Shown piece after piece: positions 1 to 64,000 of a stretch of DNA of 64,000 nt. The notes under the pieces are model-generated. The model was given only the letters and a program-made list of their open reading frames with translations. It was not told the origin of the DNA and searched no databases. The stretch spans positions 1,184,001 through 1,248,000 of the forward strand of contig CM000436.1 in assembly GCA_000165345.1 (NCBI GenBank), given 5' to 3'. Each line of letters opens with the position of its first letter. Position 1 is the first letter of the stretch. The position numbers were made by a program, and so were the translations under genes.

Positions 1-1
1 C

Positions 2-2065
2 AATTGTATAGCCAAGATAGATTCTCCGTGGTCTCCTATACATATACTTTTAACAACGAGTATTGAGAATGAAATAAACTTTGAATTTTTAAATCTTGCA
101 AATACTTCATCAGATCCAAAATTCTGTAACTCTTTATGCACTTTGCCATTTCCAGGTAATGATAATTGGTTACTCAGAAGAGCCTTCCTTCCAGAAGTGG
201 TGGTCCAAAGAGTGGCATTTTGCAAAGAGTATGGTCTTATTGCCATTATTGTTGGAATTCCTGATAATGCAAAGCACCATTTAAATGGGTATCATATTCG
301 TCAAATGGCTTTCTATAGATATCTAAGATGTCTAGAAGCTGGAGGAAAAGAAGCTCAAACTATCTTACTTAACCAAGATCTCATTAGAAACCCCGACAAG
401 TGCTTTGAAAAGTCTTTAGCAAGTATTCCAGATTTAGATATTCCTCCTGCAAATTTCGACTCAGAAACATATTTTGACACTCTTCCTCCTGGGATAGAAA
501 TTGGAGAATCTCTTCCTAAAATATTCTATCAGTCTAATATGATAAACGAAAAAGCCAGAAAATTAGGGTTTTCTAACCAATCTTCCACATGCAGTCATTC
601 CGAGACAGAAAATGGGGCGCCCAACGGTGCATGCAATGGTTTTGAGCGGGAACAATTCGGAATATTAATGGACCCAAATATAATGCGTAACGAGTTATTA
701 ATATATTCATTTGAAGATTTATTTCCACATTTAAGACCATCAGTGCCACTTTCAGGGCAAAGCCTTGATAGTTTTCCGAAGCCAAAAGGAAGATATGCTT
801 TTGGAGCTTGGGAGGTGGGTCTGAGTATGAAGTTTGGACAAGATTCCAAAGGCCAGCAAGTTTTAATTATTGGTACAGGCACAAACCCAACTCATTACTA
901 TGAAGCAGAGGGAAGGCTACTGATGTTTAAAGTAAAGCAATTGGTTTCTGTAAATGAGGAAGATGGGAATATTGTAGGAGGAACAACAGGAAATGGAACA
1001 GAAGTTGAAAGTAAAAGAGAAGTAGTAGTAGGAACAACAGGAGTTCGAGTAAATAATACAAAATGGACAAATATGTTAAAATATTGGCCATCCAGATTTT
1101 CAAAGCAGCTATATCATGATAATGTACAAGAGTTGGATATTTGTTTTCAAAGTATGTATAGGGGTCCTGTAACAAGTGTTGATCTAATTAACCTACCAGC
1201 AACAACAGCTCCAATTGCACCAGCAATACCAGCTTTAGCAGCTTATCCAATAATACAGAATAATTCTATTGTCAGAGCTCCAAATTCTAATGTTACCTAC
1301 ATTGCTCATACATTTGGATATAGACTTTATATACATGAACTAAGAGAAAATAACGAGGGGAACTTTACTAAAGGAACTTTTATGGATACTCCTTTAGGTA
1401 TTAGTTCAGTTTCTAATTATAAAGCTTTATTTTTCTTGGGAGACATAAGAAGAGGAATTCATTTTGGAATGCTTAGAACTGATGCTTCCAGAGGATCTCA
1501 AACAATGGTTAAATTTGCTAGATCTCATCCTCTTTGGAAATTTACATGTACATCTGCTCAAGCTATTGTTCAAGATAAAGATCTTGCAATTCTAGTATCT
1601 GACAACAATAATAATCTATTTACTTTTGAACCTAACTTTAATGCAACGCAAATAATTGACAAGGAAACACTTAAACCAACATCACATACAAGCCTTTCTA
1701 CATCCTTCGTACATATGAGAACTGTGGAATCAGATAATTATCGTTATGTCATTGCTAGTGGAAGAAATGGTTCCTTCTTCTCTATAAAGCTCACAAATAA
1801 ATTACAACACGAACATCTTTCACATGTTGAGAAATTACTCTGTTGCAATATTCCTTCATTTTTAGGAATATCTCCTAATTCCTCTCTGCCTATTAATCCA
1901 AATCTTACCAGCATCCCACAATTCATTCAAAATCTATATCCTACTGATAAAATCATATTTCTTAAACATCTAAATTACCTTAAATACTTATCTGATCCAA
2001 TCTTACAATCCATTTTCAAAAACACAAATATATCACTTTCGCGCATTCACCAATTTATAGTTTGA
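2..2065 (+). CDS. 3' part of a gene truncated by the window edge; C-terminal beta-propeller region resembling the CPSF160/SF3b130/DDB1 (CPSF_A) family
   Basis: Frame 2 is open from nt 2 to the TAG at 2063-2065. The track 'M' at 143 is a TTG, not a real start. Motifs GRLLMFKV, YRGPVTSVDL and LFTFEP resemble the C-terminal propeller of CPSF160-type proteins. Confidence 0.45.
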   Translation, partial: NCIAKIDSPWSPIHILLTTSIENEINFEFLNLANTSSDPKFCNSLCTLPFPGNDNWLLRRAFLPEVVVQRVAFCKEYGLIAIIVGIPDNAKHHLNGYHIRQMAFYRYLRCLEAGGKEAQTILLNQDLIRNPDKCFEKSLASIPDLDIPPANFDSETYFDTLPPGIEIGESLPKIFYQSNMINEKARKLGFSNQSSTCSHSETENGAPNGACNGFEREQFGILMDPNIMRNELLIYSFEDLFPHLRPSVPLSGQSLDSFPKPKGRYAFGAWEVGLSMKFGQDSKGQQVLIIGTGTNPTHYYEAEGRLLMFKVKQLVSVNEEDGNIVGGTTGNGTEVESKREVVVGTTGVRVNNTKWTNMLKYWPSRFSKQLYHDNVQELDICFQSMYRGPVTSVDLINLPATTAPIAPAIPALAAYPIIQNNSIVRAPNSNVTYIAHTFGYRLYIHELRENNEGNFTKGTFMDTPLGISSVSNYKALFFLGDIRRGIHFGMLRTDASRGSQTMVKFARSHPLWKFTCTSAQAIVQDKDLAILVSDNNNNLFTFEPNFNATQIIDKETLKPTSHTSLSTSFVHMRTVESDNYRYVIASGRNGSFFSIKLTNKLQHEHLSHVEKLLCCNIPSFLGISPNSSLPINPNLTSIPQFIQNLYPTDKIIFLKHLNYLKYLSDPILQSIFKNTNISLSRIHQFIV

Positions 2066-2066
2066 C

Positions 2067-2485: not shown

Positions 2486-5400
2486 ATGATAATTCCATTA
2501 GTAAATAACGTAAGAACATATGATGGTTTTGTTAATGGTGAAATAATTGGATCAAAAATAAGTCCATGCGAAAATTACTTGGCAATAATTACAAAAGATT
2601 CTCTTCAAATAGTTAGTAATCGTCATAATCGAATACTAATTTCCAGATTTATATTAAACAACAATAATAAAGAAAAAATTGATGAAACTTTTAGTGGAAA
2701 TTTAGAATGGAGTAATAATAGTAAATTGTTAATCTTAGGATCTTCAAGTTATCAACATGTCTTTGTTTTCCGTCTTCATCTGCATTCTCCTCTTGAAATT
2801 TCAAATGAAAATGGATATTTGAGTGAATCAGAATCTAATTTTGAAGATTCTAGTAATGAAAGTAATGAATTTGATGATAATGATGTTGATGATAATAATA
2901 ATAATAAGGATAATAATGAAAATAAATATCAAACAAATAAACAGGAAAACTTTTTTATTATAAGTGATTCTGTTTCAAAAGTTAATAATAATGAAAGATT
3001 TGTTTTTATTACTGAAGAGCTTGAAAATGGATTAATTAATATTCCAAGTGTTAATGTTCCTGATGAAATCTTTGATAGCTTTCAAGAAGATCTGTTATCT
3101 TTTCAGTTAATTAGTGAATATGGAACTTTGACAGAAAAAAATGAAAAGTCAAATATAGAAACTGAAATTGAATTCTCAACATCTTATGCAAAATTGGATT
3201 TAATTGGAATGATTAATGTATTTTATAAATTTGATTCCTTTCTTCTTATTTTTGACCAAAATATTAATGAATATGTTTTATTATTTTCTTTAAATGAATT
3301 TCCAATACTAATTTTAATAACAATTTCCAACTCAAGCTTCAAAATAAGAAGAAATATATTCTTAACAGATTTAATTTCTTTAAAAGGTATTGGAGATGAA
3401 TTTAAAAACAATTTTCAAACTTGTTCATTTTCTTCATTAGATCCTATTTATAACTTTGATTTAAATAAAAGAAACTTTTTTAGTGGATATTTGGATTTAT
3501 CCATTATAAATAAAGAAATTAAATTGGAAAATTTGGAAAGATTAAAAATATCCTCTCAAATTCAAGAAAATATTAAAGAATTATCAACTTCAGCCAATTC
3601 TTATTACCAAAATGGTTTAAGTTTAATGGAAACTTTAATTAATAATAGTAATAAAGATTTTGATTTTAGTTTGCAAAATAAACCAAATTTCTTAGGATTT
3701 GGAATTAGAAATTTGGAATATAATGAAATTCATGATTGGTTAACATTAATAGTTAAACCAATCAATTCTCTTTTATTATTTTCTTGGAATTCACCATTAA
3801 CTTTAAATGGAAATCATAAAGATTATGATCAAAGTAAAAATATTCAAAGATCTCCATTTGGATTTATTATTAAGCCAAGTGGTATTTTGAGATCAAAAAT
3901 TCTCAATCGATATCGTAGAATTGTTACAATTTGTGACGAATCATTTGAACTTACAGAAGAAATTGGAATTGAATTTGAATTATGTAATGATTATATTGAT
4001 AATGAATCCACTTATAATTTTGATGATAATAATAATAAATCAATTAATGATTCAGAAATTAACATTTCTAACTCATTTAACCAAAAAGAATTGTTTATTA
4101 GAATTCTTTCATTTGAAGAGATGATATTTATTCAGCCAGAAAATAATCATAAAACTGCTGAAAATAATATAATTTTTGATAAACCCAAAATTAATTGTAT
4201 ATTTAGTTTAAAACTTTCAGAAATGATCTCCAATATGAGCTTATTCTCCAAAGTCCCATATATGAGTGTAACCAATAGTGATATGTATATTACTATAACT
4301 TTGGAAGAATATGGAATATTTATAATTGATAGTCTTTCTGGTAAAATTTACTTTAAAATTAATAAAGATATATCCAAAATTCAGAATTCCATTATATTTA
4401 AACATGCTATTATTATTTCAAATGATTTTTCAATGTTGTACCAAGTAAAGATTAAAACAAATGATAATGATCAAGAAAGATTATATTTGATAGAACTTCC
4501 AATTTATAAATTAGTGGAAACAAGATCATCTTTTTGTAGGCTTTCAAATAATGATCAAAGTCTTCCTTCATGTGAAAATTTGGTTTTTCTTGGAATAGAA
4601 AGCATTGGAATATTACAATGTAATTACAGAAATTTTCAATTAGATTTTGATTTAGAATCCAATAACTTTAATGATTTGAAGGAAAGTAATAAAATTGAAA
4701 AAGATTCCATTAAAGAATTAAGTTTCAAAAATGAACATTTTAGTTACAATTATGATAATAATATTAAAAATAACCAAAGAATTACCCCAGATTCTAGTGG
4801 AATAATATCATCTTGTGTTGAATTCCAAACAGATTTAGTTTTGAAAAGTATACCAATTCCTCCTTCCATATATATTAATCATAACTGGCCAATTAATATG
4901 GCATATGTTAACAAAAGTGGAAATTATATACTAGTAAGTGGTTATAGGGGATGTGCAATTTATGATTTAATTAACTCAAGATGGAGATTATTTTGTGATT
5001 TAAATCATGAACTTCTTTTATGTAAACCAAATTTACCATTTGGATGGATTAATGAATGGGTTTTCTTCTTATCAGTGGATTCCTCTTTGCTTTTAAATAC
5101 TTTTCATGATTTAATTACAAGTAATGATGATTTATGGGAAATATCAGCATTTGAGAAGAATAAATTATATGAAACTTATATCCGATCTTTAAATAGAAAA
5201 TTGAAATCCAGAAATATTCAAAATCAAATAAATAAAAATGACGAAAGTTGTATTGTATTTTTCGATATCCGAAATTCTCTTGATATAAGAAATATTATTG
5301 GAATAATTCCGTTTTGCTCTTCTAATCCATTATTAGTGGTTAATAGTATATCTAAACCAGAAGATGATCTTTTTATTTTGTATACTGATGATTTTGTTCT

Positions 5401-7810
5401 TACAGCTTACGAAGATGAAAATTTATCAAATTCTTCACGTATACCTTCAGAAGTTAAATGGCTTGTTGATCTTTCAGAAATTTGGAATGAGCATCCTGTA
5501 GAAATTTTATTAATCAATATATGTATTGAATTCTGTATATTTCTTATATTACAAAAAGATTGGAAATTATATAAATTAACAGTATATTACCAACCAAGTG
5601 AAAATATATTAAATAAAAAATGTGAATTTAAACTTGAACCAATTAACAAATCATGTATTGAATTTGATGAGAATTTGTTTTATTATAATAATTCAAATAT
5701 CATAAAATTTGGATATATGGAATTTTGTTCAAATAATAAAGGGATTAAAAAATCCTTTGAATCTTTAGAAATTACTTCTTCCTTAAATAAAGCTCAGTCA
5801 AAATGCAGAATGAATCCAAATATCTCAAATTTTGATAATATTTTGAAAGATGCATTAAATTTACTTGAAAATGAATATAATAAATCAGCTGAAAATGATA
5901 TATTTGAATTTTTAAAAAACGATGATCTCAGAAAGTTTATAAATAATTGTTTGAATCAAAATATAAATATAATTTCAGATAAGCTTCCATTATACTGGGA
6001 AAATATTGAAGAATTAGTCATTTCTGGTATTATTTGGTACTTAACAGAATCTCAAGAAATATTTTTGCTTCCATTAATTGATGAAATGAGTTATAAAGAA
6101 AACCAAAAGTGCTTACAACTTAATCCAATACTTGTACAATCATTTCAAACAAAAATTAATCATACTCAAATTGTGAATTTTTTTCCTGGTCTTGCTTCAT
6201 TTTTACTTTTGGAAACATATCCAAACAAAAAAAGAATTAATAATGAATTTAATTCTGAATCAAATATTAGTAAAAGCCTTAGTTCTTTAGTTAATGAGTC
6301 GAGAATTATATTAACAATATGTCAAAGCTTATCTCCAGTTTTACAAGATTTGATTAACATTCCAAATAAATTTTTGAGATCCAAGATTATAAGAGAATTT
6401 TTATTTCCAATCACGAGTTATATTAAATTTTACCCTTTAGAGAATATACTTAAAATTCTGATAAATATTTTTGAAAATATGATTTTCTCCACTTTAAAAG
6501 ATTCATGTAAAGAGTATAAAAAAATTTTGAATGAGATGATTGAGAAAATGGTATCATTTTCCAAGCAAAATGATCTTATAAATAAAAATGTTACTGATGA
6601 ACTTATTAATAATTATTTGAAAGAAATCTTTTATATTGTTGGACCAAATATGAATATATGCAACGAAAGTTGTTGTGACCATAACAAAGATTCTAGTATC
6701 ATTGAGTTAATTCAATCAAAAATTATAAAATCTTCACCGAAAATACAAGAAATGATACAATTAATGGAAATAATTGAAGAATCTCTCGATATAGTACATA
6801 TAAATATATCTTCAATGGAATCATTATCTCAAATTGGAAGTAATAGTACAGAATCAAATATATTTACTTTTCTTGTTATTTCAATAATCAGAAAGATTGA
6901 TCCAGTAATTGTTCCATGTATAATTTTTCCAATAATTGGTCGAAATCCAAATAATCTTTTTCAAGAATGCATTAGGAATAAAAATTTTTCAAATGCAATG
7001 CTTTACCTAACAGTTTTACAATCTTTTCTTGGACCATATTATGTTAGATATGAACATTCTCTTTTATTACTACATAATATTTTATCAAATACAAATATTA
7101 CCAATTATTATCAACTTTTTTCTATGGCAAGTCAAACCATTAAATTCATCTTTATTATTTTCAAACCAAATAATTTATCTATAAATACGCCATTATCTAA
7201 AATTACTGAGCCAGTTTCAATTGTTGGAATAAATAATTGCAATAATTTAGAATTGGATTGTCTTGTTTTTTTAAATAAAATAGATAGTATACTTGAATTC
7301 CATTTTTTATCTAAACTTATACAAATTGAATGGTTGTATATAATTATTATGTGCAAAAGTTTGGGAATGAACTTTAATTCTTGGTTCACACATTGTTTGC
7401 AAAAATACTTTCCATTATGGTTTAGTGACGAGGATTTGGATTCTTTTTCTTATTTAAAATCTACTAACTTTGTTAATTTGGTTATCTCAGTCCAACATAA
7501 ATTTAACCTTTTTAATATAGAAGAAAATTCTATTTGTCTTTTTGATGAAACATTCCAACAAAATTCATCATCCAAAGTATTGAATAATATTAACCATAAT
7601 TTTCTTTCAAATATTCACAAAAATAATTCAGAAATTTTTTCTCAACATTTTTCTATACAAAAGAACTTTATTGTTATTCAAGTAATTAAACAATTTTTTA
7701 AAGCATTTTTATCCAATTCTTTCCCTTTACCGGCATTAGCTATTGCATATGCATGCAATGACGTGTATTCTGTCCACAAAGTTCTGCATGACTTTCCAAA
7801 TATTAAATAA
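2486..7810 (+). CDS. very large (1774 aa) Asn/Ile/Lys-rich protein, possibly a RIC1-like (Rab6 GEF subunit) WD-type protein
   Basis: Uninterrupted ORF with a real ATG at 2486. The segment MAYVNKSGNYILVSGYRGCAIYDLINSRWRLFCDLNHE aligns by eye with the RIC1 block VAVNSKTGAVAVAGRRGLAHYSLFTRKWKLF. The rest is low complexity. Confidence 0.5.
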   Translation: MIIPLVNNVRTYDGFVNGEIIGSKISPCENYLAIITKDSLQIVSNRHNRILISRFILNNNNKEKIDETFSGNLEWSNNSKLLILGSSSYQHVFVFRLHLHSPLEISNENGYLSESESNFEDSSNESNEFDDNDVDDNNNNKDNNENKYQTNKQENFFIISDSVSKVNNNERFVFITEELENGLINIPSVNVPDEIFDSFQEDLLSFQLISEYGTLTEKNEKSNIETEIEFSTSYAKLDLIGMINVFYKFDSFLLIFDQNINEYVLLFSLNEFPILILITISNSSFKIRRNIFLTDLISLKGIGDEFKNNFQTCSFSSLDPIYNFDLNKRNFFSGYLDLSIINKEIKLENLERLKISSQIQENIKELSTSANSYYQNGLSLMETLINNSNKDFDFSLQNKPNFLGFGIRNLEYNEIHDWLTLIVKPINSLLLFSWNSPLTLNGNHKDYDQSKNIQRSPFGFIIKPSGILRSKILNRYRRIVTICDESFELTEEIGIEFELCNDYIDNESTYNFDDNNNKSINDSEINISNSFNQKELFIRILSFEEMIFIQPENNHKTAENNIIFDKPKINCIFSLKLSEMISNMSLFSKVPYMSVTNSDMYITITLEEYGIFIIDSLSGKIYFKINKDISKIQNSIIFKHAIIISNDFSMLYQVKIKTNDNDQERLYLIELPIYKLVETRSSFCRLSNNDQSLPSCENLVFLGIESIGILQCNYRNFQLDFDLESNNFNDLKESNKIEKDSIKELSFKNEHFSYNYDNNIKNNQRITPDSSGIISSCVEFQTDLVLKSIPIPPSIYINHNWPINMAYVNKSGNYILVSGYRGCAIYDLINSRWRLFCDLNHELLLCKPNLPFGWINEWVFFLSVDSSLLLNTFHDLITSNDDLWEISAFEKNKLYETYIRSLNRKLKSRNIQNQINKNDESCIVFFDIRNSLDIRNIIGIIPFCSSNPLLVVNSISKPEDDLFILYTDDFVLTAYEDENLSNSSRIPSEVKWLVDLSEIWNEHPVEILLINICIEFCIFLILQKDWKLYKLTVYYQPSENILNKKCEFKLEPINKSCIEFDENLFYYNNSNIIKFGYMEFCSNNKGIKKSFESLEITSSLNKAQSKCRMNPNISNFDNILKDALNLLENEYNKSAENDIFEFLKNDDLRKFINNCLNQNINIISDKLPLYWENIEELVISGIIWYLTESQEIFLLPLIDEMSYKENQKCLQLNPILVQSFQTKINHTQIVNFFPGLASFLLLETYPNKKRINNEFNSESNISKSLSSLVNESRIILTICQSLSPVLQDLINIPNKFLRSKIIREFLFPITSYIKFYPLENILKILINIFENMIFSTLKDSCKEYKKILNEMIEKMVSFSKQNDLINKNVTDELINNYLKEIFYIVGPNMNICNESCCDHNKDSSIIELIQSKIIKSSPKIQEMIQLMEIIEESLDIVHINISSMESLSQIGSNSTESNIFTFLVISIIRKIDPVIVPCIIFPIIGRNPNNLFQECIRNKNFSNAMLYLTVLQSFLGPYYVRYEHSLLLLHNILSNTNITNYYQLFSMASQTIKFIFIIFKPNNLSINTPLSKITEPVSIVGINNCNNLELDCLVFLNKIDSILEFHFLSKLIQIEWLYIIIMCKSLGMNFNSWFTHCLQKYFPLWFSDEDLDSFSYLKSTNFVNLVISVQHKFNLFNIEENSICLFDETFQQNSSSKVLNNINHNFLSNIHKNNSEIFSQHFSIQKNFIVIQVIKQFFKAFLSNSFPLPALAIAYACNDVYSVHKVLHDFPNIK

Positions 7811-8459: not shown

Positions 8460-8726
8460 ATGGAAAATAGTTACAAGATGGGAGTTAAAAATATTGTATT
8501 GTTATTTGCCACATTTCTATTAAGTGTTTTAGCAGAAGATCAAAAGGATGGAGAAATTTTAGCAGTAACTCCAAGAGATTTAAATTTGACTCCTTTTAAT
8601 TTATCAGCTTTAATTTTAGTTTCTTTTTTTACTATGTTGATTATTTTTATTGTTGGATTAACTATTGATACTGATACTCCAACTAGATTTGAAGAGAAGA
8701 TGCCACCTATTATGAAGGAATATTAA
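8460..8726 (+). CDS. small type-I membrane protein (signal peptide, one TM, short acidic tail)
   Basis: ATG at 8460. Hydrophobic N-terminus MGVKNIVLLFATFLLSVLA, a second hydrophobic span LILVSFFTMLIIFIVGL, then DTDTPTRFEEKMPPIMKEY. No homolog recognised. Confidence 0.4.
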   Translation: MENSYKMGVKNIVLLFATFLLSVLAEDQKDGEILAVTPRDLNLTPFNLSALILVSFFTMLIIFIVGLTIDTDTPTRFEEKMPPIMKEY

Positions 8727-9222: not shown

Positions 9223-9768
9223 TTATTTTGAAGGGAAGTCAGCAAGCGAAAGTTGATAAAAACCAACAATCATTCCAAATAAACCCAAAGCACCGGCAAA
9301 AATTTCAACAACCAACATCTTAGAAAATAATTCTCCTCTTTGAGCATCAGCAAGAGCTGTTGAACTACCAGTAATTCCAACACTAATACCAGAAAATAAA
9401 TTTGATAAACCAATTGTTAGTCCAGAACAGAGCAAAATCCATGAAGATTTGACTATCTGTACCTCCCAAGCATCCTTTGGTTGACCAGAAATTATATCAA
9501 TATCCGGAAGTGATCTTATTTTAGACATTAATAAAAATGTTGCAATTACACCATAAATTGCAGTAGCTTCACAAAAAATTACTGAAATCAAATTCTTTGA
9601 ACGAATTCTTGGAGATCTAAGAGCTGCTCCAACTAAAGAATTACCAGTTGTGAAAATACCCCAGCCTGCTCCAAATGTTGAAAGAACTATGCATAATACT
9701 ACTCCAAGATATGCAAAATGTAATGGAGGAATTGATAAGAAAATCTCTGAATATGTTTGATATGCCAT
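9223..9768 (-). CDS. VMA16: V-type H+-ATPase V0 proteolipid subunit c'' (ATP6V0B/VMA16 family)
   Basis: GAGWGIFTTGNSLVGAALRSPRIRSKNLISVIFCEATAIYGVIA and GLTIGLSNLFSGISVGITGSSTALADAQRGELFSKMLVVEIFAGALGLFGMIVG align almost residue for residue with human ATP6V0B. The proton-binding Glu is present in FCEA. The protein starts at the helix matching human TM2, so it is either a 4-TM form or an upstream exon is missing. Confidence 0.85.
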   Translation of the reverse strand: MAYQTYSEIFLSIPPLHFAYLGVVLCIVLSTFGAGWGIFTTGNSLVGAALRSPRIRSKNLISVIFCEATAIYGVIATFLLMSKIRSLPDIDIISGQPKDAWEVQIVKSSWILLCSGLTIGLSNLFSGISVGITGSSTALADAQRGELFSKMLVVEIFAGALGLFGMIVGFYQLSLADFPSK

Positions 9769-10161
9769 CTTATCTCTTAAAATTTACCACTATAATATAA
9801 TACAATATAATATATATTTTTATATTTATTTATAAAAAAAAATAAGATAATGTTTTGATTAGTTTCACAATCTTGTCTATTAATTACTATTATTTTCAAT
9901 ATAAATTTTTAATCTTGAAGTATAATCAAGATATTCGTGGTCCTTGAAAATTAATATGGAAAGCTAATCAATTCTGCTTATTAATTTACTTAATCTCCTC
10001 TTAATTTAATTGAGAAACTTTAAGTTAAATTATTTTCTTTTTTTTTTTCCTTTTTGCTCCCAATCTTATTTTAATTAATTCAGTAATGGCTTCACTAATA
10101 TTTATTTAGTTTATCCATTACATTAATTTATTCCTATATTATAATCAATGCAAACACAAAG

Positions 10162-10185
10162 TTCCCGCCTGATTTTCCCGCCATT
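10162..10185. promoter_or_regulatory. tandem CCCGCC boxes (TTCCCGCCTGATTTTCCCGCC) upstream of the V-ATPase c'' gene (minus strand)
   Basis: Two copies 13 nt apart, ~400 bp 5' of the ATG at 9768. Confidence 0.5.
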
Positions 10186-11860
10186 GTCTAATAATTGTCA
10201 TTTATTTAATAGTTGATTGTGAAGTGTTAAAAAAAGTTGTTTTAATTAAAATAAATTCATAATTTTCACACAGTACAAACACTACTCTTAAAGTTCGATT
10301 TTTAGTTTCTCACTATTAGTTATTTATATAATTGTACCTAAACTCTTAAACTATTAGAGTTTGAATATCTAGATAAGCTGTCTCTTTAAGAAATTATCAA
10401 GTTTAAGGAAAATGAGATCTAAAGTATATGTTAATATCAATTATATCTTTAATTATATAATTTGAGGCTGCTACTACTACTACAAATACTACCAATACTA
10501 CCACTTATACTGCCATAAATACTAGAACTAATACTACTAATACCACTGCAAAGCCAACAAGCATTATTACCACCATTACTACTTTAATACCTCTAATAAT
10601 ACAATAATATTGCGATTTTAACATTGCTCGTACTTTTTTCTCTTTCCTCTCTTTGAACTCAATATCAATTCTCAGTTTTTATTTTTGTATCAGATTCGTT
10701 TGAGATTATTCAAGAACTATATATATACGATATTTTGAAAGTGGAAGAAAAAAGAAAAGTGGATCATGCATATTACATTCAAATATATAACTAGGAACTA
10801 GTAGGAAGTGAATGAAGAAAATAGATTTAGTTAAATGAAGAGAGAAAAAAAGAACAAAATAGGAAATATGCCTGTTAGATATTATATTCACTAAATCTTT
10901 CATATATTTCAATAATTAACAACATAATATCTTACATTTAATAATATTAAAAATATAGATAAGCATGTATATATATATATATTCATCTACTTATTTACAA
11001 TTTATTATCTATTTAAATATTAGTAATTATTATCATTCGAAATTATGTCATTTAATAATTACATATTAATGCATGCATTAATATTGTTGCCACCAACTTA
11101 ACTATTATAGTTTCATCAGATAACATTACATAATTCAATATTGAAAATCTATTTAAAAAATAAATAATTAAAACCAAATTTAAATAAATTTTTAATAACT
11201 TATTCAATATTAAATTCTCTCATTATCACTAATCATTTTATTATTTTACCCCAAATCAATTAATATTTAATTATTCAACCCCACCTTATATGGCGCTTAC
11301 CAGAACCCCTCCTATAATATAAATTTTTAACTGCTCGTGACTTTGGGAAGGCGCCAAAATCTGAACACACAAATTAGAAAATATTTTTATTTAATATAAT
11401 GAAAGGCATTTAAGAATTCCCCCTCTCGGAGAATAATAGCAAAAGCTAGAAATATCAAAATCTGTGATAGAAGAGCTTTGTAATTAGTGAATAGGATAAG
11501 AGCTTATGAGATAAGCAAAGGAGTTAGGAACACGACTTTTGTATGTACAAAGCCTGGAGAATTTGAATAAAAAAGCCGGGCAAGGAATTATCTGAATGTT
11601 AAATTAAAGTTCTTAAAAATATATATATTTTGCTAATAAAGGAAAGGGAAGGAAAAAAGGAAGCTAGGTAGAGTAATTTGTATTAAAAAAAAAATTAAGA
11701 GAAAATAACTATCAAGAAGATAATATTGATACAAAATCTCTAGTTGGTTTCCATAAAACTTCCAATTCAAAGTTTAAGTAAACTCTGATAGGTAAATAGA
11801 AGTAAATATATTTATGTATTTTGATTGTAAAAGTCAAAGTTTGAGTGATTGGTATAATTG

Positions 11861-11900
11861 AGAGTGAGAGAGAGAGAGAGAGAGAGAGTGAGTGAGTGAG
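11861..11900. repeat. (GA)n / (GAGT)n microsatellite
   Basis: agagtgagagagagagagagagagagagtgagtgagtgag. Confidence 0.9.
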
Positions 11901-12275
11901 AAAGAGAGATAAATAGAAAGAGTGTGAGAGTGAAGGAAGGGTTAAAAAAACATCTTGGAAGGTTTGTTTTCGAAATCTTCTTGGATACGGGAATTAAAAT
12001 ACATATAGTCAAGGTTTTGTTGTACCACTAAATAAATCACAGAGCTAAAGATTGGAAGTTATATTTATTCTTGATAAGATTTTGAAATAATAGGGGTTTC
12101 TGGTCTTTAAGGCACTAGTAACAACTGAAAGGTTTGGATAACTTACAGTTTGATAATATTATTTGCCTTAAAGAGAGATTTTACTTCTTTTATCTAATAT
12201 AATAATCCAATTCTTCTGTCGTTTATTCTATAAATTGTGAATAATAAAAGGTTTGGCTGAATTAGTATCATCGAG

Positions 12276-15273: not shown

Positions 15274-15326
15274 GGCGCCTGCATGTTTGCATGCATATAT
15301 AAGTTCAATTTGAGCGCCACATGCAT
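15274..15326. promoter_or_regulatory. GGGCGCC + TTTGCATGCAT + GAGCGCCACATGCAT composite element
   Basis: Located in the 14618-16120 intergenic region. It combines the E2F-like GGCGCC with GCATGC and CATGTG. Confidence 0.5.
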
Positions 15327-18844: not shown

Positions 18845-18864
18845 GCATGCGGAAAATGGCGCCA
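18845..18864. promoter_or_regulatory. GCATGCGGAAAATGGCGCCA, ~90 bp upstream of the zinc-ribbon gene ATG
   Basis: The TGGCGCCA palindrome plus GCATGC. Confidence 0.5.
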
Positions 18865-19555: not shown

Positions 19556-19556
19556 T

Positions 19557-22528: not shown

Positions 22529-22640
22529 ATCTTTAATATTAAGATTTAGTTAATATTTTTTTTCCTCTCTTTTTCTTCTTCTTCATGAATCATAATTATC
22601 ATCCAAACCAAATATTCAGAGTAGAAATAGCCCATAGATT

Positions 22641-44083: not shown

Positions 44084-44230
44084 TTCTTCACACAAATAAA
44101 TATATGAATAACAATTGATTAAGTTGAGATTTTTTGTTCTATTATCATTAAAAACTTAATTAAAAAAATTTCAATATTTTTCTTTAGTTAAAAATATGAA
44201 TTTTCTTGAATAAATTAATGACGCAATTAA

Positions 44231-50995: not shown

Positions 50996-51934
50996 ATGAA
51001 AAGTAAGGGAAAAGGATTAATAAGTGAAGAAAATGAAGAGGTTCCAGTAATATTATTAAGAAAACTAACAAAAAATGAGACAATTTTAAGCTTAGAATTT
51101 ATCAAGGATGATAGTCATTTAATATCTGGAAATATTTCCGGAGTTTTGGATATTTGGGATTTAGAGATCATGAGATGTTCTTCAAGTATAAATATGAAAT
51201 TTGATTCACCTATTATTAAAACTATTTATGATGAAAAAAAGGAAATTATATATGTACAAAATAGAAAAGGTGAGATTTATTTAGTAGATAATACTGAAAA
51301 TTTTAAAAAATTGGATTTAAATGGTATTTACTATTCACTTGCAAAAATGATCATTCTTCCTACTAGAGAAAGTATAATTTTTCCAAGAGAAAATGATCTT
51401 TTATTAAAAAATATTAACAATTCGAAACATGATGATATTCAATTCAATTATCCAACTGAAAAAAGTGACAAACTTATTGAAGTTGAATCTCTTAATGATC
51501 ATTCTGTATTATTAGGTTTTGAATCAGGAAATGTTGTCATTTGGGATTTAAGAAAACCTGATTCTCATGTATATATGAACAATGTAACACAAAATTCTCC
51601 AATATTATCTATGAAAAGATCTTTTAATCGTATTTGGATATCTACCTTTGATTCAAAACTTCGTGTTTTTAATAGAAATTGTTTTGATCATCCAATTAAA
51701 GAAATTGACTCTTTAAATGTTGTTGATAAAATTTCTATACGTTCAGATTCTCTTATTACAGTTACATCCAATACACTTAATACAAACATGGATATTTTTG
51801 AAAATAAATCTTTAAATTATATTAAAACATTCAAATTTCATTCCACAGAAGTTAGTTCTATACAATTCTCAAACTCTTCAAATTTATTTGCTGCTTCATC
51901 AAATACTATTTCAATATGGGATTTACTATCGTAG
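50996..51934 (+). CDS. WD40-repeat protein (312 aa), specific family not recognised
   Basis: ATG at 50996. Repeated blocks SGNISGVLDIWDL, GFESGNVVIWDLRK and SSNTISIWDL are WD repeats. Confidence 0.7.
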   Translation: MKSKGKGLISEENEEVPVILLRKLTKNETILSLEFIKDDSHLISGNISGVLDIWDLEIMRCSSSINMKFDSPIIKTIYDEKKEIIYVQNRKGEIYLVDNTENFKKLDLNGIYYSLAKMIILPTRESIIFPRENDLLLKNINNSKHDDIQFNYPTEKSDKLIEVESLNDHSVLLGFESGNVVIWDLRKPDSHVYMNNVTQNSPILSMKRSFNRIWISTFDSKLRVFNRNCFDHPIKEIDSLNVVDKISIRSDSLITVTSNTLNTNMDIFENKSLNYIKTFKFHSTEVSSIQFSNSSNLFAASSNTISIWDLLS

Positions 51935-52311: not shown

Positions 52312-54180
52312 TTAAAAATTTGCCACGTCATTTGTACCGCCATTCCCCACATGTGGCGCCTCTTCCGTTGTATTGGAAATTAAATTAAATATAGAGTTTT
52401 TATTATGTCTATAATTAAAATCATCATAATCAAAATTTGATAAAAGTTCAAGTTGTTTAATTATTTGATTAATTTGTAAACTTGATGGTCTGGAATATGA
52501 GTTAATATCTGAATTATAATTTGAAGCTACTTTTGAATTTTTTGGTTTATGTACGAGGCAAGGAAATAAATCAATTGTATGAGATTCATTCATCTTCTCT
52601 TCAATTATATCCAAATTGTTTAAATCTTCTGAATTCTTTAATTCTTTTAATTCATCTTTTATGTTATAATAATCTAAAAGAAGTTCTTGATCTTGACTTG
52701 GAAGTTGTTCTTCTGATAGAAAAACTAAAATCATCCAGTCAAATTCTGCTTGAATCTCTTTTAATCTTCTTTTAAAATTATTAGATTTTTGATTTATTAA
52801 ATTATCCTCATTATTATATTTACTATTATTATTTCCATTCTTACTTTCAAATTCCTTCTTTGCTAAATTTAAAAATTTTGTCCATCCTTGTTTACTTTCA
52901 CAAAATATTATCCCAAAAGTATCATTTAATGATGATTTATTTCTAAATGTATTTAATAAACTTACTGAATCTTTATTTATTACAAGATTTTTTGGATTTG
53001 AACCAATTATTTGAATATTTGTAAAACTATCTATTTTTAACTTTGTATTTTGTAAATTATTATAATTATTTACAAGTCTTGAAAATAATCCCTTCTTTAA
53101 ATTTGGTAAACATTTATCATTTATTAAATTTGAATCAATTGAATCCAAATTCATTACTATTGGATTCTCAAACAAATTTTTTGGCATACTTAATAACTTT
53201 TTTAAATATGTATATGAATTATTTATTAATATTTTATAATTTGTTATTGATATATTCATTGCAGGTAAATCCCTTAATTCAATACTATTCTTATTCAATA
53301 TTGGCTTAAAAAATAAATAAATTAATAATTCTTGCCAAAAAAATTCCCATTCTGATTCATTATTTAAACATTTATTATTATTAATATTTATATTTATTTC
53401 ATTATTATTCGATAATTTTGTTTCAAATATACCTTTCATCTCATTCCAATGATCTAAAAATCCATATTTTAAAATATCATCACCATATTCATCATAAACT
53501 TCTTTTTTATTTGGATTACTTAAAAATTCATAAGATTCTTGAACTTGTCTAAATTTTATTAAACTCTTTTCTTTTTGTTCATCATTCTCTGATCTTTGTT
53601 TATCAGGATGTAATTTAGAAGCTTTTTTTCTATATGCTTTCTTAATATTTTCTATACTACTTCCAGGTTGAAGTTCTAATATATCATAATATTTATGAGA
53701 AATTAAAACTCTTCTATTTAATATTTTTAATTCATCATTTTCTAAATAATTATCTTTTATTTTATTTCTTTTCTTATATTTATCTTGATTATCATCTTCA
53801 TCATTTTCTTCTTCATCAGATATTATTAATTCCCTTCTTTTTAATACACTATTTTGACTTCTTAATGTTTTAACATAATCTGATTTTGTCTTTGAATCAT
53901 TACTAACAATGCTTGGTGAATAACTTATTTTACTTAAAATATCATCTTGTTTACTTTTATTATTTATACTATTATTACTATTACTACTACTAGTACTTGT
54001 AATACTAGCTAAACTTTTATTATTTAATTCTTCTGTAATATCATTATTTTTGTAAAATCTACTAATTCCTATTTCAAATTCTTTAAATTTTTTACTTTCT
54101 TTATTTAATATATTCTCAAAATTATTCTTTTCAACATTTCTAGATTTTTGATAATCTTTTAGTCTCTTTGTAAACATCAT
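52312..54180 (-). CDS. J-domain (DnaJ/Hsp40 co-chaperone family) protein, 622 aa, Ser/Asn-rich N-terminus
   Basis: DYYDILELQPGSSIENIKKAYRKKASKLHPDKQ...FRQVQESYEFLSNPNKKEVYDEYG is a canonical J domain with HPD. ATG at 54180-54178. Confidence 0.8.
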   Translation of the reverse strand: MMFTKRLKDYQKSRNVEKNNFENILNKESKKFKEFEIGISRFYKNNDITEELNNKSLASITSTSSSNSNNSINNKSKQDDILSKISYSPSIVSNDSKTKSDYVKTLRSQNSVLKRRELIISDEEENDEDDNQDKYKKRNKIKDNYLENDELKILNRRVLISHKYYDILELQPGSSIENIKKAYRKKASKLHPDKQRSENDEQKEKSLIKFRQVQESYEFLSNPNKKEVYDEYGDDILKYGFLDHWNEMKGIFETKLSNNNEINININNNKCLNNESEWEFFWQELLIYLFFKPILNKNSIELRDLPAMNISITNYKILINNSYTYLKKLLSMPKNLFENPIVMNLDSIDSNLINDKCLPNLKKGLFSRLVNNYNNLQNTKLKIDSFTNIQIIGSNPKNLVINKDSVSLLNTFRNKSSLNDTFGIIFCESKQGWTKFLNLAKKEFESKNGNNNSKYNNEDNLINQKSNNFKRRLKEIQAEFDWMILVFLSEEQLPSQDQELLLDYYNIKDELKELKNSEDLNNLDIIEEKMNESHTIDLFPCLVHKPKNSKVASNYNSDINSYSRPSSLQINQIIKQLELLSNFDYDDFNYRHNKNSIFNLISNTTEEAPHVGNGGTNDVANF

Positions 54181-54888: not shown

Positions 54889-59142
<4,254 letters not shown>

Positions 59143-59232
59143 ATATATTGTGAAATTTTTATTAAAATATACCAATTTTTATTATTACTTTGCGTTCTAA
59201 TTCATTAATTGAATATTTTTATAGATATATAA

Positions 59233-62200
59233 TTATATACTTAGTTTGCTCTTCATTATCTCTTTAAAACTTTCGTTACAAATCTCCAAAACTACAAAAT
59301 ATGGTATACTCTTAAATTTACCCCATAACTTCGAAGAAATCACGTCATTACTATCCAAATAATCCTTCTTAAGACCACCTTTAACCTTATGAGAGTATCT
59401 AAAAGATGTAACTCCAACCAGAATTCTAGCAATATCTGCTGGAAAAATTACATCAAATTCTTCAAACCCTACATAATGTCCAAAATCTTGTCTTAAGGTT
59501 GCTTCTTCCTGTTGGGTATCGTCTTTTTTTCTTCTTTTAAAATCTTTTTGAAACTTGGAAGAAAAGTGAGATATTATTCTCTCTGTTGAAATTCGATAAG
59601 TTTCCCATTGTACTGGACTTAAATCATTAAGATAATTGCTTAATAAACTATTTATACCTGACTTTATACAAGAACTTATCTTCTGATATGCTTCCCTAAT
59701 TTCCTTTCTTTCACTTAATCTTGTATTAATATCTTCATTTTGAAAATCTGATAATTGTGATCTCTCTTGTTTCAAAATTTCTATTGAATCTTTATCCTCT
59801 TCAACTTTTTTACTTATATCTTGACTTCCTATTAAAGAATCTAATTGAACTAACTCTCTCCCTCCCAATGCAAGATCTTGTAATAATTCCTGATTCCATT
59901 TTGTAATCCAAATTTCCTGTATCATCATTTCAAAGGTATTATCTCCAAATGATTTATTATTAGAATTTCCAAAAATTAATTCTTTAATAAAACCACTAGA
60001 AATACCTTCTAAACCTTCATTTGAAATTGATTCTGAATTTTGATATTCATTCACCTCTTGATCAAATAGCTTAATATAAAGCTCAGATCTTTTATTAGCA
60101 AAATATGATTCAATAATAGAATCCTTACAACTTTTATCCATTCCAAATTTTTGAAATGAAAAATAAGCAATATCCAACTTCCAAAGTTCATTAGAATTAC
60201 GATAAACCAACTCTTTATGTAAATCTTCAACTAAAATATCCAACCAATTTTCTTTAATTATTTCTGAATCAGATTCTAAAAATAAAGATTTAAAATCTCT
60301 TCTAGATTTAAATTCTTCCATATCTACAATATATTGTGAATTGTCTTTAATTAAACTTTGACCTAAAATTATACATTGTTTATTTGTTAATCTTTCCACA
60401 GAAATCTTCCAAGTACTTTTTTCATTCTCAACTTCATCCTCCAATTCTTCTAAACTCTTTTCTAAAAACATAGATGCCTCTAAAAGATTAATAGTAATAA
60501 CACCAGAATTCTCTGTTGAAAATCTTGATAATGAACTAAAAAAATCACTCTTCTCTTTAATCTTGGAAAAATCTTCATCAAAACATCTGATTTTTAAATA
60601 TGGACTCCCTCTTATATAACTAGACCAACTAGCTTTAATATTCTTTCCTTTATATTTTATTCCTAATAAATAATCCATATATAGCTTTAAATTATATAAT
60701 AAAGTCTCAATTTCTTCCATTTGTTTCACATTTAAAATAATCTTGAAAAATTCCATTGGGAAAATTTCCAATTCTATTTTTTTCTTTTCAAAATCATTAT
60801 TTATATCCATTATATGATTATTACTAAAATCATATCTACCAAGTATTACATGTAATAAACATCTTAAAGCTGTTTTATCTATTAATGAAGCTGAAATAAT
60901 TTGTCTCTTATTTCTATAATCTTCATCAGATAATAACATTAAACATATTCCCAACTTATCCAATTGCCTTGCACATCTTCCAGTTTCTTGTATATATTGT
61001 TCTAAAGAATTTGGCATATTCCAATGTATTACTGCATCAACATCTTTTTTATCAATTCCCATACCAAAAGATGTTGTTGCTACAAATATATTTGTCTTAT
61101 TATCAATAAATGATTTTTGTACCATTTCTCTCTCGCTATTACTCATCATTCCATGATAATATAAAGCATTTGCTCCTTTTGTTCTTAAGTAATTTGTTAC
61201 AGCTTCCACTTCTGATCTTTGCCAGACGTAAATCAATATATTTCTACATTTTGACCAAACTTCTCTCCTTGTTTTCTTTTTCTCATGTAATTGAGATTCT
61301 ACTTGAGTACTATTATTTGGATTATGATTACCATTCAAAGAATATTTAATGTGATCCCATAATAAAGAGTAGTTATTGTACATTTTTGGTACTTTTGTAA
61401 TATTCAAACTTAATCCTCTATTAAAATCTTGTAATGCTTTTTTTTTCATAGAATCCAGATGCAAAACTTTACAATGAAGATTTTCCCTTTGTATTTTTTG
61501 GTTAGAATATGGTTGTATAACCTCTCCCACTTTAAGCAAAGATTTGAGTTCTTCTAACATACCAGAAGGAGCAGTAGCAGTAATTCCTAATATTCTCTCA
61601 ACTTTAAAGTTATTTATTAAATGTCCAATAGAAGAGTAATAACTTGGTCTGAATGAATGTCCCCATTCACAAACACAATGTGCTTCATCTACACATAGTA
61701 ATGCAATTTTGTTCTTTGACAAATCCAATCTAGCCATTCTAATTTCATGTTGATCTTGATTAATTTCTAACAATCCTTTTGTTAAAAATGTTGAAAACAT
61801 ACTTTCTGGTGTAACAAATAAAATATCCAAACTACCCTCTTGAATTAACTTTATAATAGACTTCTTCTCTTCTACTGATACACTTGAATTCCAGATTGCT
61901 CCTCTAATTCTTTTACTTAAAGTCCTTAATTGATCTTGCATTAAAGATATTAAAGGCGTAATTACTATTGTAACTTTCCCAAACCACATATTTAATAACA
62001 ATGATAAGTATTGGAAACACAAACTTTTTCCATATCCTGTTGGAAGAATTAAAATACTTCCTTTTTTAAAACTCTTATTTTCTTTACCACTTAATAGTAT
62101 CGAATATATTGCTTCCAGTTGGCCTTCTCTAAAATCACCATATCCAAAATTTTCTTCCAAAAACTGTTTACATAAATTTCCTAAAACCTGACAATTATTT

Positions 62201-63498
62201 CCAGAATTACTTTCATTCTTCTTATCATTATCAGCTTGATAAATTAAAGAATCAACTTCTTCTTTTATCTTTTTAGATAATTCCAAAGATGGTCTATCCA
62301 AAAGAGAGATTTCTTCTCTGAAGCAATCTTTACAACCTTGAGAAAAGTTATTAGACCATTTTCTTGGGTCATTTAATATATCACTTTCTTGTAACTTTAG
62401 ACTCTCGTGATTTCTTCTCTCATTATTACTCTTGTTCTTCAATAAATACTTGTTGAACTTGACTTCATTTCTCTTTTCTTCTATCCTTTCCCATTTCTTC
62501 AAATTCCGAACTTGTTCACCACCATTATTCATCATATTTTCTTTCCCTTCTTCAATTGTATTTTCAGATTCAATTTCCTTATCTTTGTTGACTCTCACTC
62601 TACCATTACTATTATAAGTTCTTTTTCTAACTGCTCTAACTGTTGATACTCCACTAATATACCTATTCTTGCTCTTGGGGACGGTTTTTGGACCCCAAAG
62701 CTCAGAAGAACCCTTTTCTTTTTGCTGTCTCTTTCGACCTTTCCTATTTTCCTCATTCACCTTACTGACTTCTTCTGTAGATACTTCTCGTACTTCGCTC
62801 TCTCTGATTTGAATATTTTTAGTTTCTTGATCTAAATTATTCTGACTTTCATTACTAATATCTCCCTCATCCAATTCTCCTATATCTTTGTGTTTCTTGT
62901 TATTAATAGAATTTGTCTCTTTTTTCATATTATCTAAATCATTATCCAATCTAGAATCTTCTTGTGATGGCTTATTTTCAGAAACTAATAATCTTGGTAA
63001 TAGCCTTGAGCCTATCTTTCTACTATCCAATATTATCTTTGAAATCTTATCTTTGAACTTTAGCCAATAATCCCTCATCTCATTTGGAGGCTGATTAAAC
63101 TCCTCCCATTTAGTATAATAATGATCATTTTTCCACTTTATAAAGCATTCAAGTATATCAGATTTACTTTCCTCCAATTGAATTATTTCCAAGTATACAC
63201 CAAAGTATTTGTCTTGTTTGATTTGGTCACTTATCACCTCTTTTTGTTCTTTAGAGTCACTTTTGCTCGTCCAAGTATTTCTAATTCGTTCCAAAATATC
63301 TTCAAGGTTCAATTTTTCCTCCTCTTTATCTAACTGATCTTGAACTAATAACTTTAAATCTGATAATGCTTTGTCCAACTTTTGTTTATAAGGCAAAAAT
63401 TGCTCACTATATGGAGTTAGTGGCAAATTTAATACTACATCTGAAAGGTCTGTACCATTATATATTTGTCTTATTGTTCGCTTGTTTCCAGTACTCAT
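59233..63498 (-). CDS. RecQ-family DNA helicase (1421 aa)
   Basis: GDFREGQLEAIYSILLSGKENKSFKKGSILILPTGYGKSLCFQYLSLL, VTIVITPLISLMQDQ, LLCVDEAHCVCEWGHSFRPSY and the later FVATTSFGMGIDKKDVDAVIHWNMP are RecQ helicase motifs I, Ib, II and V-VI. ATG at 63498-63496. Confidence 0.85.
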   Translation of the reverse strand: MSTGNKRTIRQIYNGTDLSDVVLNLPLTPYSEQFLPYKQKLDKALSDLKLLVQDQLDKEEEKLNLEDILERIRNTWTSKSDSKEQKEVISDQIKQDKYFGVYLEIIQLEESKSDILECFIKWKNDHYYTKWEEFNQPPNEMRDYWLKFKDKISKIILDSRKIGSRLLPRLLVSENKPSQEDSRLDNDLDNMKKETNSINNKKHKDIGELDEGDISNESQNNLDQETKNIQIRESEVREVSTEEVSKVNEENRKGRKRQQKEKGSSELWGPKTVPKSKNRYISGVSTVRAVRKRTYNSNGRVRVNKDKEIESENTIEEGKENMMNNGGEQVRNLKKWERIEEKRNEVKFNKYLLKNKSNNERRNHESLKLQESDILNDPRKWSNNFSQGCKDCFREEISLLDRPSLELSKKIKEEVDSLIYQADNDKKNESNSGNNCQVLGNLCKQFLEENFGYGDFREGQLEAIYSILLSGKENKSFKKGSILILPTGYGKSLCFQYLSLLLNMWFGKVTIVITPLISLMQDQLRTLSKRIRGAIWNSSVSVEEKKSIIKLIQEGSLDILFVTPESMFSTFLTKGLLEINQDQHEIRMARLDLSKNKIALLCVDEAHCVCEWGHSFRPSYYSSIGHLINNFKVERILGITATAPSGMLEELKSLLKVGEVIQPYSNQKIQRENLHCKVLHLDSMKKKALQDFNRGLSLNITKVPKMYNNYSLLWDHIKYSLNGNHNPNNSTQVESQLHEKKKTRREVWSKCRNILIYVWQRSEVEAVTNYLRTKGANALYYHGMMSNSEREMVQKSFIDNKTNIFVATTSFGMGIDKKDVDAVIHWNMPNSLEQYIQETGRCARQLDKLGICLMLLSDEDYRNKRQIISASLIDKTALRCLLHVILGRYDFSNNHIMDINNDFEKKKIELEIFPMEFFKIILNVKQMEEIETLLYNLKLYMDYLLGIKYKGKNIKASWSSYIRGSPYLKIRCFDEDFSKIKEKSDFFSSLSRFSTENSGVITINLLEASMFLEKSLEELEDEVENEKSTWKISVERLTNKQCIILGQSLIKDNSQYIVDMEEFKSRRDFKSLFLESDSEIIKENWLDILVEDLHKELVYRNSNELWKLDIAYFSFQKFGMDKSCKDSIIESYFANKRSELYIKLFDQEVNEYQNSESISNEGLEGISSGFIKELIFGNSNNKSFGDNTFEMMIQEIWITKWNQELLQDLALGGRELVQLDSLIGSQDISKKVEEDKDSIEILKQERSQLSDFQNEDINTRLSERKEIREAYQKISSCIKSGINSLLSNYLNDLSPVQWETYRISTERIISHFSSKFQKDFKRRKKDDTQQEEATLRQDFGHYVGFEEFDVIFPADIARILVGVTSFRYSHKVKGGLKKDYLDSNDVISSKLWGKFKSIPYFVVLEICNESFKEIMKSKLSI

Positions 63499-63920
63499 TT
63501 CATCCTATTTTAAGCTTAATTATTACTAATACTTTAACAGTTAATTATTATTATTATTATTATTATTTTACCAAAGAGAAATTCAAGTTATTGTAAGGTC
63601 TAGTATAGTTAATCAATGAGAATATATTATGGTTTTTAACTCTTCAAAAAGTCAAATGTACCACTAGCAAATCCCAATTCTTTATATAATCTACTCAGCT
63701 TTCTTCTCAAAATTCTTTGATTATATTCCACCTGATACTATTACTCTATTTCCAAATCCAATTTTTCCAACCTCTTTTGTCATCTAATTCTTTATATATA
63801 ATGCTAACATTCAACCGGATAATACATGTTACTGATGTTTTTCCTTTTTGGCTATTTTCTTTTTCTTTTTTTCCCTTTGCTACCTTTTTGTTACATTTAA
63901 CTCTTGGGAAAGTGTGGGGA

Positions 63921-64000
63921 AGATTGCCCGCTCAAAATTGCATGTATTAAGCTCCGGTAAAATGTTCATGTAGTTTTGCAATACCGGTATGCCTGCATGC
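63921..64000. promoter_or_regulatory. TTGCCCGCTCAAAATTGCATG ... CTCCGGTAAAATG ... AATACCGGTATGCCTGCATGC, upstream of the RecQ gene (minus)
   Basis: CCCGCTCAAAA (as at 2069), two CCGGTA copies and a terminal GCATGC. Confidence 0.45.

Follow-up and report, generated by a model that had tools for sequence, protein, structure and literature searches.

The 64-kb stretch of DNA analysed here, referred to as the window, carries 21 protein-coding genes on both strands together with two kinds of short element, GC-rich hexamers resembling E2F sites (GGCGCC, GGCGGG and related boxes) and GCATGC sites. We assessed the origin of the window, its gene content, and the placement and conservation of these elements. 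The guanine-plus-cytosine (GC) content of the window is 27.5%, and 10 isolated bases are ambiguous. The gene map, which was built from long open reading frames (ORFs) and from genes called on matching public contigs, gives about one gene per 3 kb, with gene spans covering 77% of the window. GC content amounts to 29.2% in the gene spans (21.0-36.6% per gene) versus 21.5% in the intergenic DNA. The preliminary description of this DNA, made from its letters alone, had depicted an AT-rich window with eukaryotic genes on both strands, as is indeed found; the spacers, which it called AT-only, are AT-rich but contain 13-29% GC, and the longest pure A/T run measures 63 nucleotides (nt). The genes are listed below with the lengths of their products in amino acids (aa).

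1-2065, plus strand: 3' part of a CPSF_A/DDB1-like gene; Pfam CPSF_A, 1.7e-17; also a called gene; frame open from base 2.
2486-7810, plus strand: Ric1-like protein, 1774 aa (cgd8_4780); exact match to EAK89610.1; PF25440 Beta-prop_RIC1_2nd.
8460-8726, plus strand: small 88-aa gene, called in all C. parvum assemblies and at orthologous positions elsewhere; no known domain and no match in Pfam.
9223-9768, minus strand: V-ATPase proteolipid subunit c'', 181 aa; exact match to EAK89611.1; PF00137.
12276-14618, plus strand: SSM4-like RINGv and FHA protein, 780 aa; exact match to EAK89613.1/XP_627364.1 only.
16120-18408, plus strand: FCP1-type phosphatase of the RNA polymerase II carboxy-terminal domain (CTD), 762 aa (cgd8_4810); exact match to EAK89614.1; PF03031 NIF.
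18952-19555, plus strand: 110/113-aa gene with introns at 19146-19295 and 19346-19466 (both GTAAGT); splice solutions fit the annotated lengths.
19557-20313, minus strand: TAF9 (TFIID 31 kDa) with an intron at 20142-20304 (GTAAGT) from splice inference; PF02291.
21101-22528, plus strand: secreted Kazal-domain mucin-like protein, 475 aa, with a Ser/Thr-rich tract; exact match to EAK89616.1; Kazal_1, 1e-08.
24520-31749, minus strand: low-complexity protein, 2409 aa, from the ORF and called genes.
32286-35762, minus strand: SUN (Sad1/UNC) domain protein, 1158 aa; exact match to EAK89618.1; PF07738, weak.
36294-38384, plus strand: 631-aa secreted protein with introns at 37809-37863, 37924-38006 and 38151-38207 (all GTAAGT), the sole splice solution fitting the annotated length.
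38935-40138, plus strand: Fcf1/Utp23 ribosomal RNA-processing protein, 301 aa (cgd8_4870), with introns at 39023-39267 and 39932-39984 (GTAAGT); exact match to F0X477_CRYPV/QOY40255.1.
40829-42116, plus strand: 392-aa membrane protein, a called gene with an intron at 40886-40994 (GTAAGT) from splice inference.
42402-43070, minus strand: 155-aa gene, a called gene with introns at 42933-43034 and 42801-42899 (GTAAGT) from splice inference.
43334-44084, minus strand: AP complex sigma subunit (AP-sigma), 158 aa; exact match to EAZ51488.1/A3FQ07_CRYPI; Clat_adaptor_s, 1.5e-42.
44615-50425, plus strand: PAN2-type poly(A) nuclease, 1936 aa; exact match to EAK89620.1; UCH_1 and RNase_T.
50996-51934, plus strand: WD40 protein, 312 aa; exact match to EAK89621.1.
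52312-54180, minus strand: DnaJ-domain protein, 622 aa; exact match to QOY40261.1 and others; PF00226.
54889-59142, plus strand: bifunctional trehalose-6-phosphate synthase/phosphatase (TPS/TPP), 1417 aa; Glyco_transf_20, 2.3e-103; Trehalose_PPase, 1e-45.
59233-63498, minus strand: RecQ4-type superfamily II helicase, 1421 aa; exact match to EAK89623.1; DEAD and Helicase_C.

Nine of the ten long ORF products tested match proteins of Cryptosporidium parvum, a parasite causing diarrhoea, exactly and over their full length (EAK89610-EAK89623), and the spliced AP-sigma and Fcf1/Utp23 products are likewise residue-exact, bringing the total of exact proteins to 11. Locus tags such as 8g4780 and 8g4810 place the matched proteins on chromosome 8. 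At the DNA level, megablast comparison with 12 C. parvum loci, drawn from four chromosome-level and two read-set assemblies, showed colinear identity of 99.64-100% over window positions 6114-61934 (~56 kb). The window occupies ~1.176-1.240 Mb of a chromosome of ~1.34 Mb, in the region from cgd8_4770 to ~cgd8_4920. Judged by these matches, it is almost certainly a 64-kb segment of C. parvum chromosome 8. This agrees with the Cryptosporidium-type apicomplexan chromosome that had been proposed from the letters alone, as does a gene order kept across the genus, and the protein matches and the synteny comparison suggested as a check gave no best match in a ciliate, Dictyostelium or a gregarine.

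An origin in a close sister species (C. hominis, C. tyzzeri or C. meleagridis) has in its favour that the orthologues share protein clusters at 90% identity and that gene order is identical. The exact matches, however, are C. parvum entries, while the orthologues of the three sister species are separate members of these clusters and often differ in length, with 1422 versus 1421 aa in the window for RecQ4, 1932/1929 versus 1936 aa for PAN2, and 789/784/769 versus 762 aa for FCP1. Nucleotide identity, determined for C. tyzzeri and C. meleagridis with C. hominis compared through its proteins only, falls to 95.8-97.6% and 89%, respectively, against the near-complete identity with C. parvum. A sister species is therefore a very improbable source. 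It can be said with practical certainty that the window does not come from another AT-rich protist with E2F/DP that merely resembles Cryptosporidium, such as a gregarine, a ciliate or Dictyostelium. AT-richness, short introns and a compact layout are not unique to Cryptosporidium, and E2F/DP is reported from gregarines too (PMC6157590), so that promoter motifs by themselves would not have told the window apart from gregarine DNA. It is the sequence identity that does so, as 11 residue-identical C. parvum proteins and the colinear DNA over 56 kb already refute such an origin.

Among the C. parvum assemblies, the Iowa II reference is most probably the one from which the window derives. The 780-aa RINGv/FHA protein is identical only to EAK89613.1/XP_627364.1 of Iowa II, whose chromosome 8 record, AAEE01000001/NC_006987, measures 1,344,712 base pairs (bp), and its sequence differs slightly in later C. 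parvum assemblies. The residue-identical proteins and the gene order are also those of Iowa II chromosome 8, and the scattered single ambiguous bases fit an older Sanger assembly. The later chromosome 8 assemblies CP044415.1, CP029787.1, CP141125.1 and CM109968.1 are colinear with the window at the identity given above and carry the same called genes, but differ from it by small indels and substitutions, mainly in low-complexity and intergenic tracts. Length differences among C. parvum assemblies affect the repeat protein (2405-2409 aa), PAN2 (1936 or 1941 aa) and TPS (1417 or 1418 aa). Two observations weigh against the assignment to C. parvum: none of the four chromosome-level C. parvum assemblies compared agrees with the window at every base, and the TPS product as read here has no exact copy in the protein collection.

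The order and orientation of the genes are kept well beyond C. parvum. From CPSF_A to TAF9, the left third of the window, both are the same in C. tyzzeri, C. meleagridis, C. ubiquitum and C. bovis; from the Kazal gene to RecQ4 they are the same in C. meleagridis, and from SUN to DnaJ in the chipmunk genotype I.

The most conspicuous feature of the spacers is their content of E2F-like boxes and GCATGC sites. Expected numbers were obtained from dinucleotide-preserving shuffles of the whole window and, for intergenic DNA, from shuffling the spacers alone. In the whole window we observed nine GGCGCC boxes against 0.24 expected, ten GGCGGG boxes against 0.57, and 12 GCATGC sites against 2.9. The excess is more pronounced in intergenic DNA, which makes up 23% of the window and contains 16 GGCGSS boxes (0.42 expected), out of 22 in total, and nine GCATGC sites (0.40 expected), out of 12. 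The full palindrome TGCATGCA is present at seven of the nine intergenic GCATGC sites. An E2F-type core with T-rich and A-rich flanks was found as TTTGGCGGGAAA, which occurs once in the window, at 24305, as TTTGGCGCCAAA at 32112, as TGGCGCCA at five positions and as TTCCCGCC at two.

The placement of these elements was evaluated for the 20 genes with a start codon inside the window. A GGCGSS box is present in the upstream spacer of 11 of them, and the published core SGCGCS raises the count of genes with an E2F-like box to 13 through CCCGCGCGCGGG at 44231. GCATGC occurs upstream of 10 genes, both motifs upstream of five, and at least one of the two upstream of 16. The claim that the boxes stand upstream of almost every gene thus holds as regards an enrichment far beyond chance, but overstates the coverage, as E2F-like boxes precede 11-13 and GCATGC sites 10 of the 20 genes. 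The further statement that the E2F-like boxes sit next to GCATGC is likewise an overstatement: only two genes are preceded by both motifs at a distance of 30 bp or less (15274/15289 before FCP1 and 18845/18858 before the 110-aa gene). Additional adjacent pairs were found at 24308/24324, in a spacer between convergent genes, and at 616/629, inside the CPSF_A coding sequence. Individual sites upstream of genes are the following.

10162-10182, minus strand: twin E2F-like boxes, both reading TTCCCGCC, with a 13-bp spacing, ~400 bp ahead of the start codon of V-ATPase c''.
15274-15294, plus strand: adjacent pair of GGCGCC and TGCATGCA, 846 bp upstream of the FCP1 start codon.
18845-18863, plus strand: adjacent pair of GCATGC and TGGCGCCA, 94 bp upstream of the 110-aa gene.
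38703-38743, plus strand: twin TGGCGCCA boxes with a 35-bp spacing, ~200-230 bp ahead of Fcf1.
40486: GGCGGGAAA box, 343 bp upstream of the gene for the 392-aa membrane protein; conserved in C. meleagridis and the chipmunk genotype I.
43216: CCCGCC box, 146 bp upstream of the 155-aa gene.
50825: TGGCGCCA box, 171 bp upstream of the WD40 gene; conserved in C. meleagridis, GGCGGG in the chipmunk genotype I.
54600: TGCATGCA site, 288 bp upstream of TPS/TPP.

Comparison with C. meleagridis allowed the conservation of single sites to be assessed. In the first 20 kb of the window, intergenic identity with this species is 81%, and 39% of intergenic hexamers are unchanged. Of the 16 intergenic E2F-like hexamers in the whole window, 14 have the same sequence in C. 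meleagridis and stand at corresponding distances from the start codons. Against the 39% background, taken from the first 20 kb only, this corresponds to a binomial P of ~1e-4. At V-ATPase c'', five species, C. bovis among them, have the two GGCGGG boxes at the same place and with the same spacing. The pair upstream of the 110-aa gene is identical in C. tyzzeri and C. meleagridis, and C. ubiquitum retains a GGCGCC box there. The 35-bp spacing of the Fcf1 twin boxes is retained in C. meleagridis and the chipmunk genotype I, and in the pair upstream of FCP1 the box reads GGCGGC in C. meleagridis with GCATGC retained. The GCATGC sites are less conserved than the E2F boxes, being kept in close species and mostly lost in C. 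ubiquitum and C. bovis.

Two spacers, 35763-36293 between the divergent SUN and 631-aa genes and 2066-2485 between the tandem CPSF_A and Ric1 genes, contain neither GGCGSS nor GCATGC in C. parvum. The CPSF_A/Ric1 spacer of C. meleagridis and C. ubiquitum does carry a box (TTTCCCGCC/GGGCGGGAAA). The genes flanking these two spacers may depend on other elements or on co-transcription.

Both motifs have been described before. In the survey of Oberstaller et al. (2013; PMC3734150), the E2F-like motifs DTTGSCGCCH (motif 3) and TTTGGCGGGAAV (motif 4) show the strongest over-representation of all motifs upstream of C. parvum genes; the same study lists AP2_1 (BGCATGCAH) and the G-box, and refers to an earlier description of GCATGC and GGCGGG occurring jointly ahead of glycolysis genes. 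Of the apicomplexans studied, Cryptosporidium alone possesses E2F/DP1 (Oberstaller et al., 2014; PMC4117751), and E2F is the dominant motif in the open chromatin of sporozoites as determined by the assay for transposase-accessible chromatin with sequencing (ATAC-seq) (Xiao et al., 2025; bioRxiv 10.1101/2025.01.17.633476). The combination of E2F boxes with GCATGC had been put forward as specific to Cryptosporidium. GCATGC is well documented in Plasmodium, Toxoplasma and Eimeria as well (PMC3734150), and because it occurs across the Apicomplexa, only the E2F-like boxes are distinctive.

The GGCGCC, GGCGGG and SGCGCS boxes of the window are, by their sequence, the putative promoter elements of E2F/DP type that are already known from across the C. 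parvum genome. They share with the E2F-like motifs of Oberstaller et al. (2013) the core, the flanks, the upstream enrichment, the occurrence on either strand, the variable distance and the occasional pairing, and nothing differs materially; what is added here is the conservation of each site across five or six species at one locus. The GCATGC sites correspond to AP2_1 (BGCATGCAH/TGCATGCA), which is bound by the ApiAP2 proteins cgd2_3490 and PF14_0633 and is not specific to Cryptosporidium. In the predicted mechanism, E2F/DP heterodimers would bind the SGCGCS and GGCGGG cores and ApiAP2 factors would bind TGCATGCA, promoters being defined by the two jointly. Situated 100-900 bp upstream of start codons, often in shared divergent spacers, the boxes would often form part of bidirectional promoters, and they would mark open-chromatin promoters that drive transcription.

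Some of our results weigh against such a function as a general rule. Seven of the 20 genes have no E2F-like box upstream even under the SGCGCS definition, and the boxes are therefore not a universal promoter element. In the first 20 kb alone, seven of nine boxes are conserved in C. meleagridis, which is of modest significance (P = 0.02). Moreover, the function that we infer for these particular boxes takes its binder and its transcriptional effect from the literature only. Alternatively, the GC-rich boxes could be E2F-like in look only and be bound by a different factor or serve a structural purpose, for instance in excluding nucleosomes or marking replication origins. The ATAC-seq motif enrichment is a genome-wide one, most E2F partner proteins are missing in C. 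parvum according to the literature, and the boxes at 11278-11385 have G-box and CACACA elements around them, so that several factors may act there. We nevertheless consider a factor other than E2F/DP, or a structural role, rather unlikely, as the canonical E2F consensus is matched including its T-rich and A-rich flanks (TTTGGCGGGAAA, TTTGGCGCCAAA, TGGCGCCA), C. parvum encodes E2F and DP proteins (PMC4117751), E2F is the top motif of open chromatin (bioRxiv 10.1101/2025.01.17.633476), and the positions of the boxes are conserved across the genus.

Two conserved groups of elements, which resemble promoters, lie away from annotated starts.

11278-11385, plus strand: conserved module, ~920 nt upstream of the RINGv/FHA start codon.
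24305-24332, plus strand: orphan pair of TTTGGCGGGAAA and TGCATGCA, 16 bp apart, in the 2-kb spacer between the convergent Kazal and 2409-aa genes.

The module at 11278-11385 (~110 nt) contains two G-boxes (CCCCACC and CCCCTCC), a TATA-like run, two E2F-like boxes (TGGCGC, and GGCGCC at 11350) and CACACA. In five species 53-75% of its columns are invariant, versus 0-30% in the rest of the 2.5-kb spacer, and the GGCGCC at 11350 is retained in all five, including C. bovis. Moderate conservation of the 300 nt downstream, observed in four species, points to a long 5' leader or to a transcript missing from the annotation. A structured non-coding RNA was considered for this module and rejected: a search of the 2.5-kb spacer (9769-12275) against Rfam at E<=1 returned no match, and RNAalifold gave a covariation term of ~0 for the module, the compensatory pairs numbering 0 on one strand and 2 on the other. 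Since it consists of known upstream motifs, with no Rfam match and no covariation on either strand, 11278-11385 is better regarded as a promoter module acting at the DNA level than as an RNA gene.

The orphan pair at 24305-24332 is upstream of no annotated gene. It lies ~190 bp beyond the stop codon of the 2409-aa gene and is conserved in C. meleagridis; a (TTA)n microsatellite is present just upstream of it, at 24247-24290. The pair is probably the promoter of an unannotated, perhaps antisense, non-coding transcript. E2F and AP2_1 motifs have been found within 100 bp upstream of many C. parvum long non-coding RNAs (lncRNAs) (Li et al., 2021; PMC7840661), which offers a ready explanation for it.

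Within the CPSF_A coding sequence, the pair of GGCGCC and TGCATGCA at 616-634 makes use of the alanine codon GCG. C. tyzzeri and C. meleagridis retain the pair, as TGGCGCCAAA, despite changes in the flanking codons. It may represent an internal or antisense promoter, or no more than a coding constraint.

That the modules at 24305-24332 and 11278-11385 drive transcripts absent from the protein-coding annotation, and that 616-634 is likewise a possible internal promoter, is a tentative proposal to which we give somewhat less than an even chance. Candidate transcripts may be an lncRNA antisense to the 3' end of the 2409-aa gene and a long 5' leader or lncRNA ahead of RINGv/FHA. Recent annotations that include lncRNAs may already cover all three sites.

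With respect to the remaining gene content, introns were enumerated as GT-AG introns wherever the annotated product was shorter than the gene span, and accepted when the frame was restored to the exact annotated length. This yielded 14 introns of 53-245 nt in seven genes. Twelve of the 14 donors are GTAAGT, one is GTGAGT and one is GTGGTA with GTAAGT 3 nt downstream, in line with the short introns with GTAAGT donors noted in the preliminary description. The splice inference is validated by AP-sigma and Fcf1, whose spliced products are exact database proteins. The introns of AP-sigma are at 43853-43916 (GTGAGT), 43647-43792 (GTGGTA) and 43514-43577 (GTAAGT). Its second intron has two candidate donors 3 nt apart (GTGGTAAGT, 43784-43792, minus strand); the annotated 158-aa product uses GTGGTA, and with the alternative GTAAGT it would be one valine longer. 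In Iowa II, the Fcf1/Utp23 gene is entered as a 216-aa 'tRNA synthetase class II, partial', and the three-exon 301-aa form matches later annotations.

The assignments of TPS/TPP, PAN2, RecQ, AP-sigma and the Kazal mucin made from the letters alone were each confirmed by Pfam. In the public annotation the CPSF_A/DDB1-like gene encodes 1965 aa, its start being to the left of the window. The V-ATPase c'' protein sequence is identical in C. meleagridis and C. tyzzeri. The 2409-aa protein has no Pfam domain on record and is dominated by poly-Q, Gly/Ala and Gly-rich repeats; its length of 2405-2409 aa in C. parvum compares with 2128 aa in C. meleagridis, and one of the ambiguous bases, at 24812, appears as X within its poly-Q tract. 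A 252-aa antisense ORF at 21418-22176 (minus strand) was discarded as an artefact mirroring the Ser/Thr codon repeats of the Kazal mucin gene opposite. The long spacers 9769-12275 and 22529-24519 contain only short low-complexity ORFs of at most 84 aa, and tRNA and Rfam scans of the whole window found nothing. Some convergent genes end very close to each other, the 110-aa gene and TAF9 1 bp apart (19555-19557) and TPS and RecQ4 90 bp apart (59143-59232). With so little space between their ends, the 3' untranslated regions of each pair must overlap on opposite strands.

The genome and the motif surveys are already published, and nothing of biological substance is new in this window. Our small addition is the site-by-site conservation of E2F-like boxes in five or six Cryptosporidium species, with the spacing of twin boxes kept as far as C. 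bovis. The remaining leads are the two conserved modules far from starts and the conserved pair in the CPSF_A coding sequence, which could mark unannotated transcripts; if so, these would add to the antisense and lncRNA transcription already known in C. parvum, without amounting to a new kind of system. The source lineage could be read correctly from composition, gene content and promoter motifs alone, and E2F-type boxes in AT-rich spacers are a usable signature of Cryptosporidium, with the caveat of E2F/DP in gregarines. The conservation of the individual sites lends support to the view, already published, of E2F/DP as a major regulator of promoters in Cryptosporidium.

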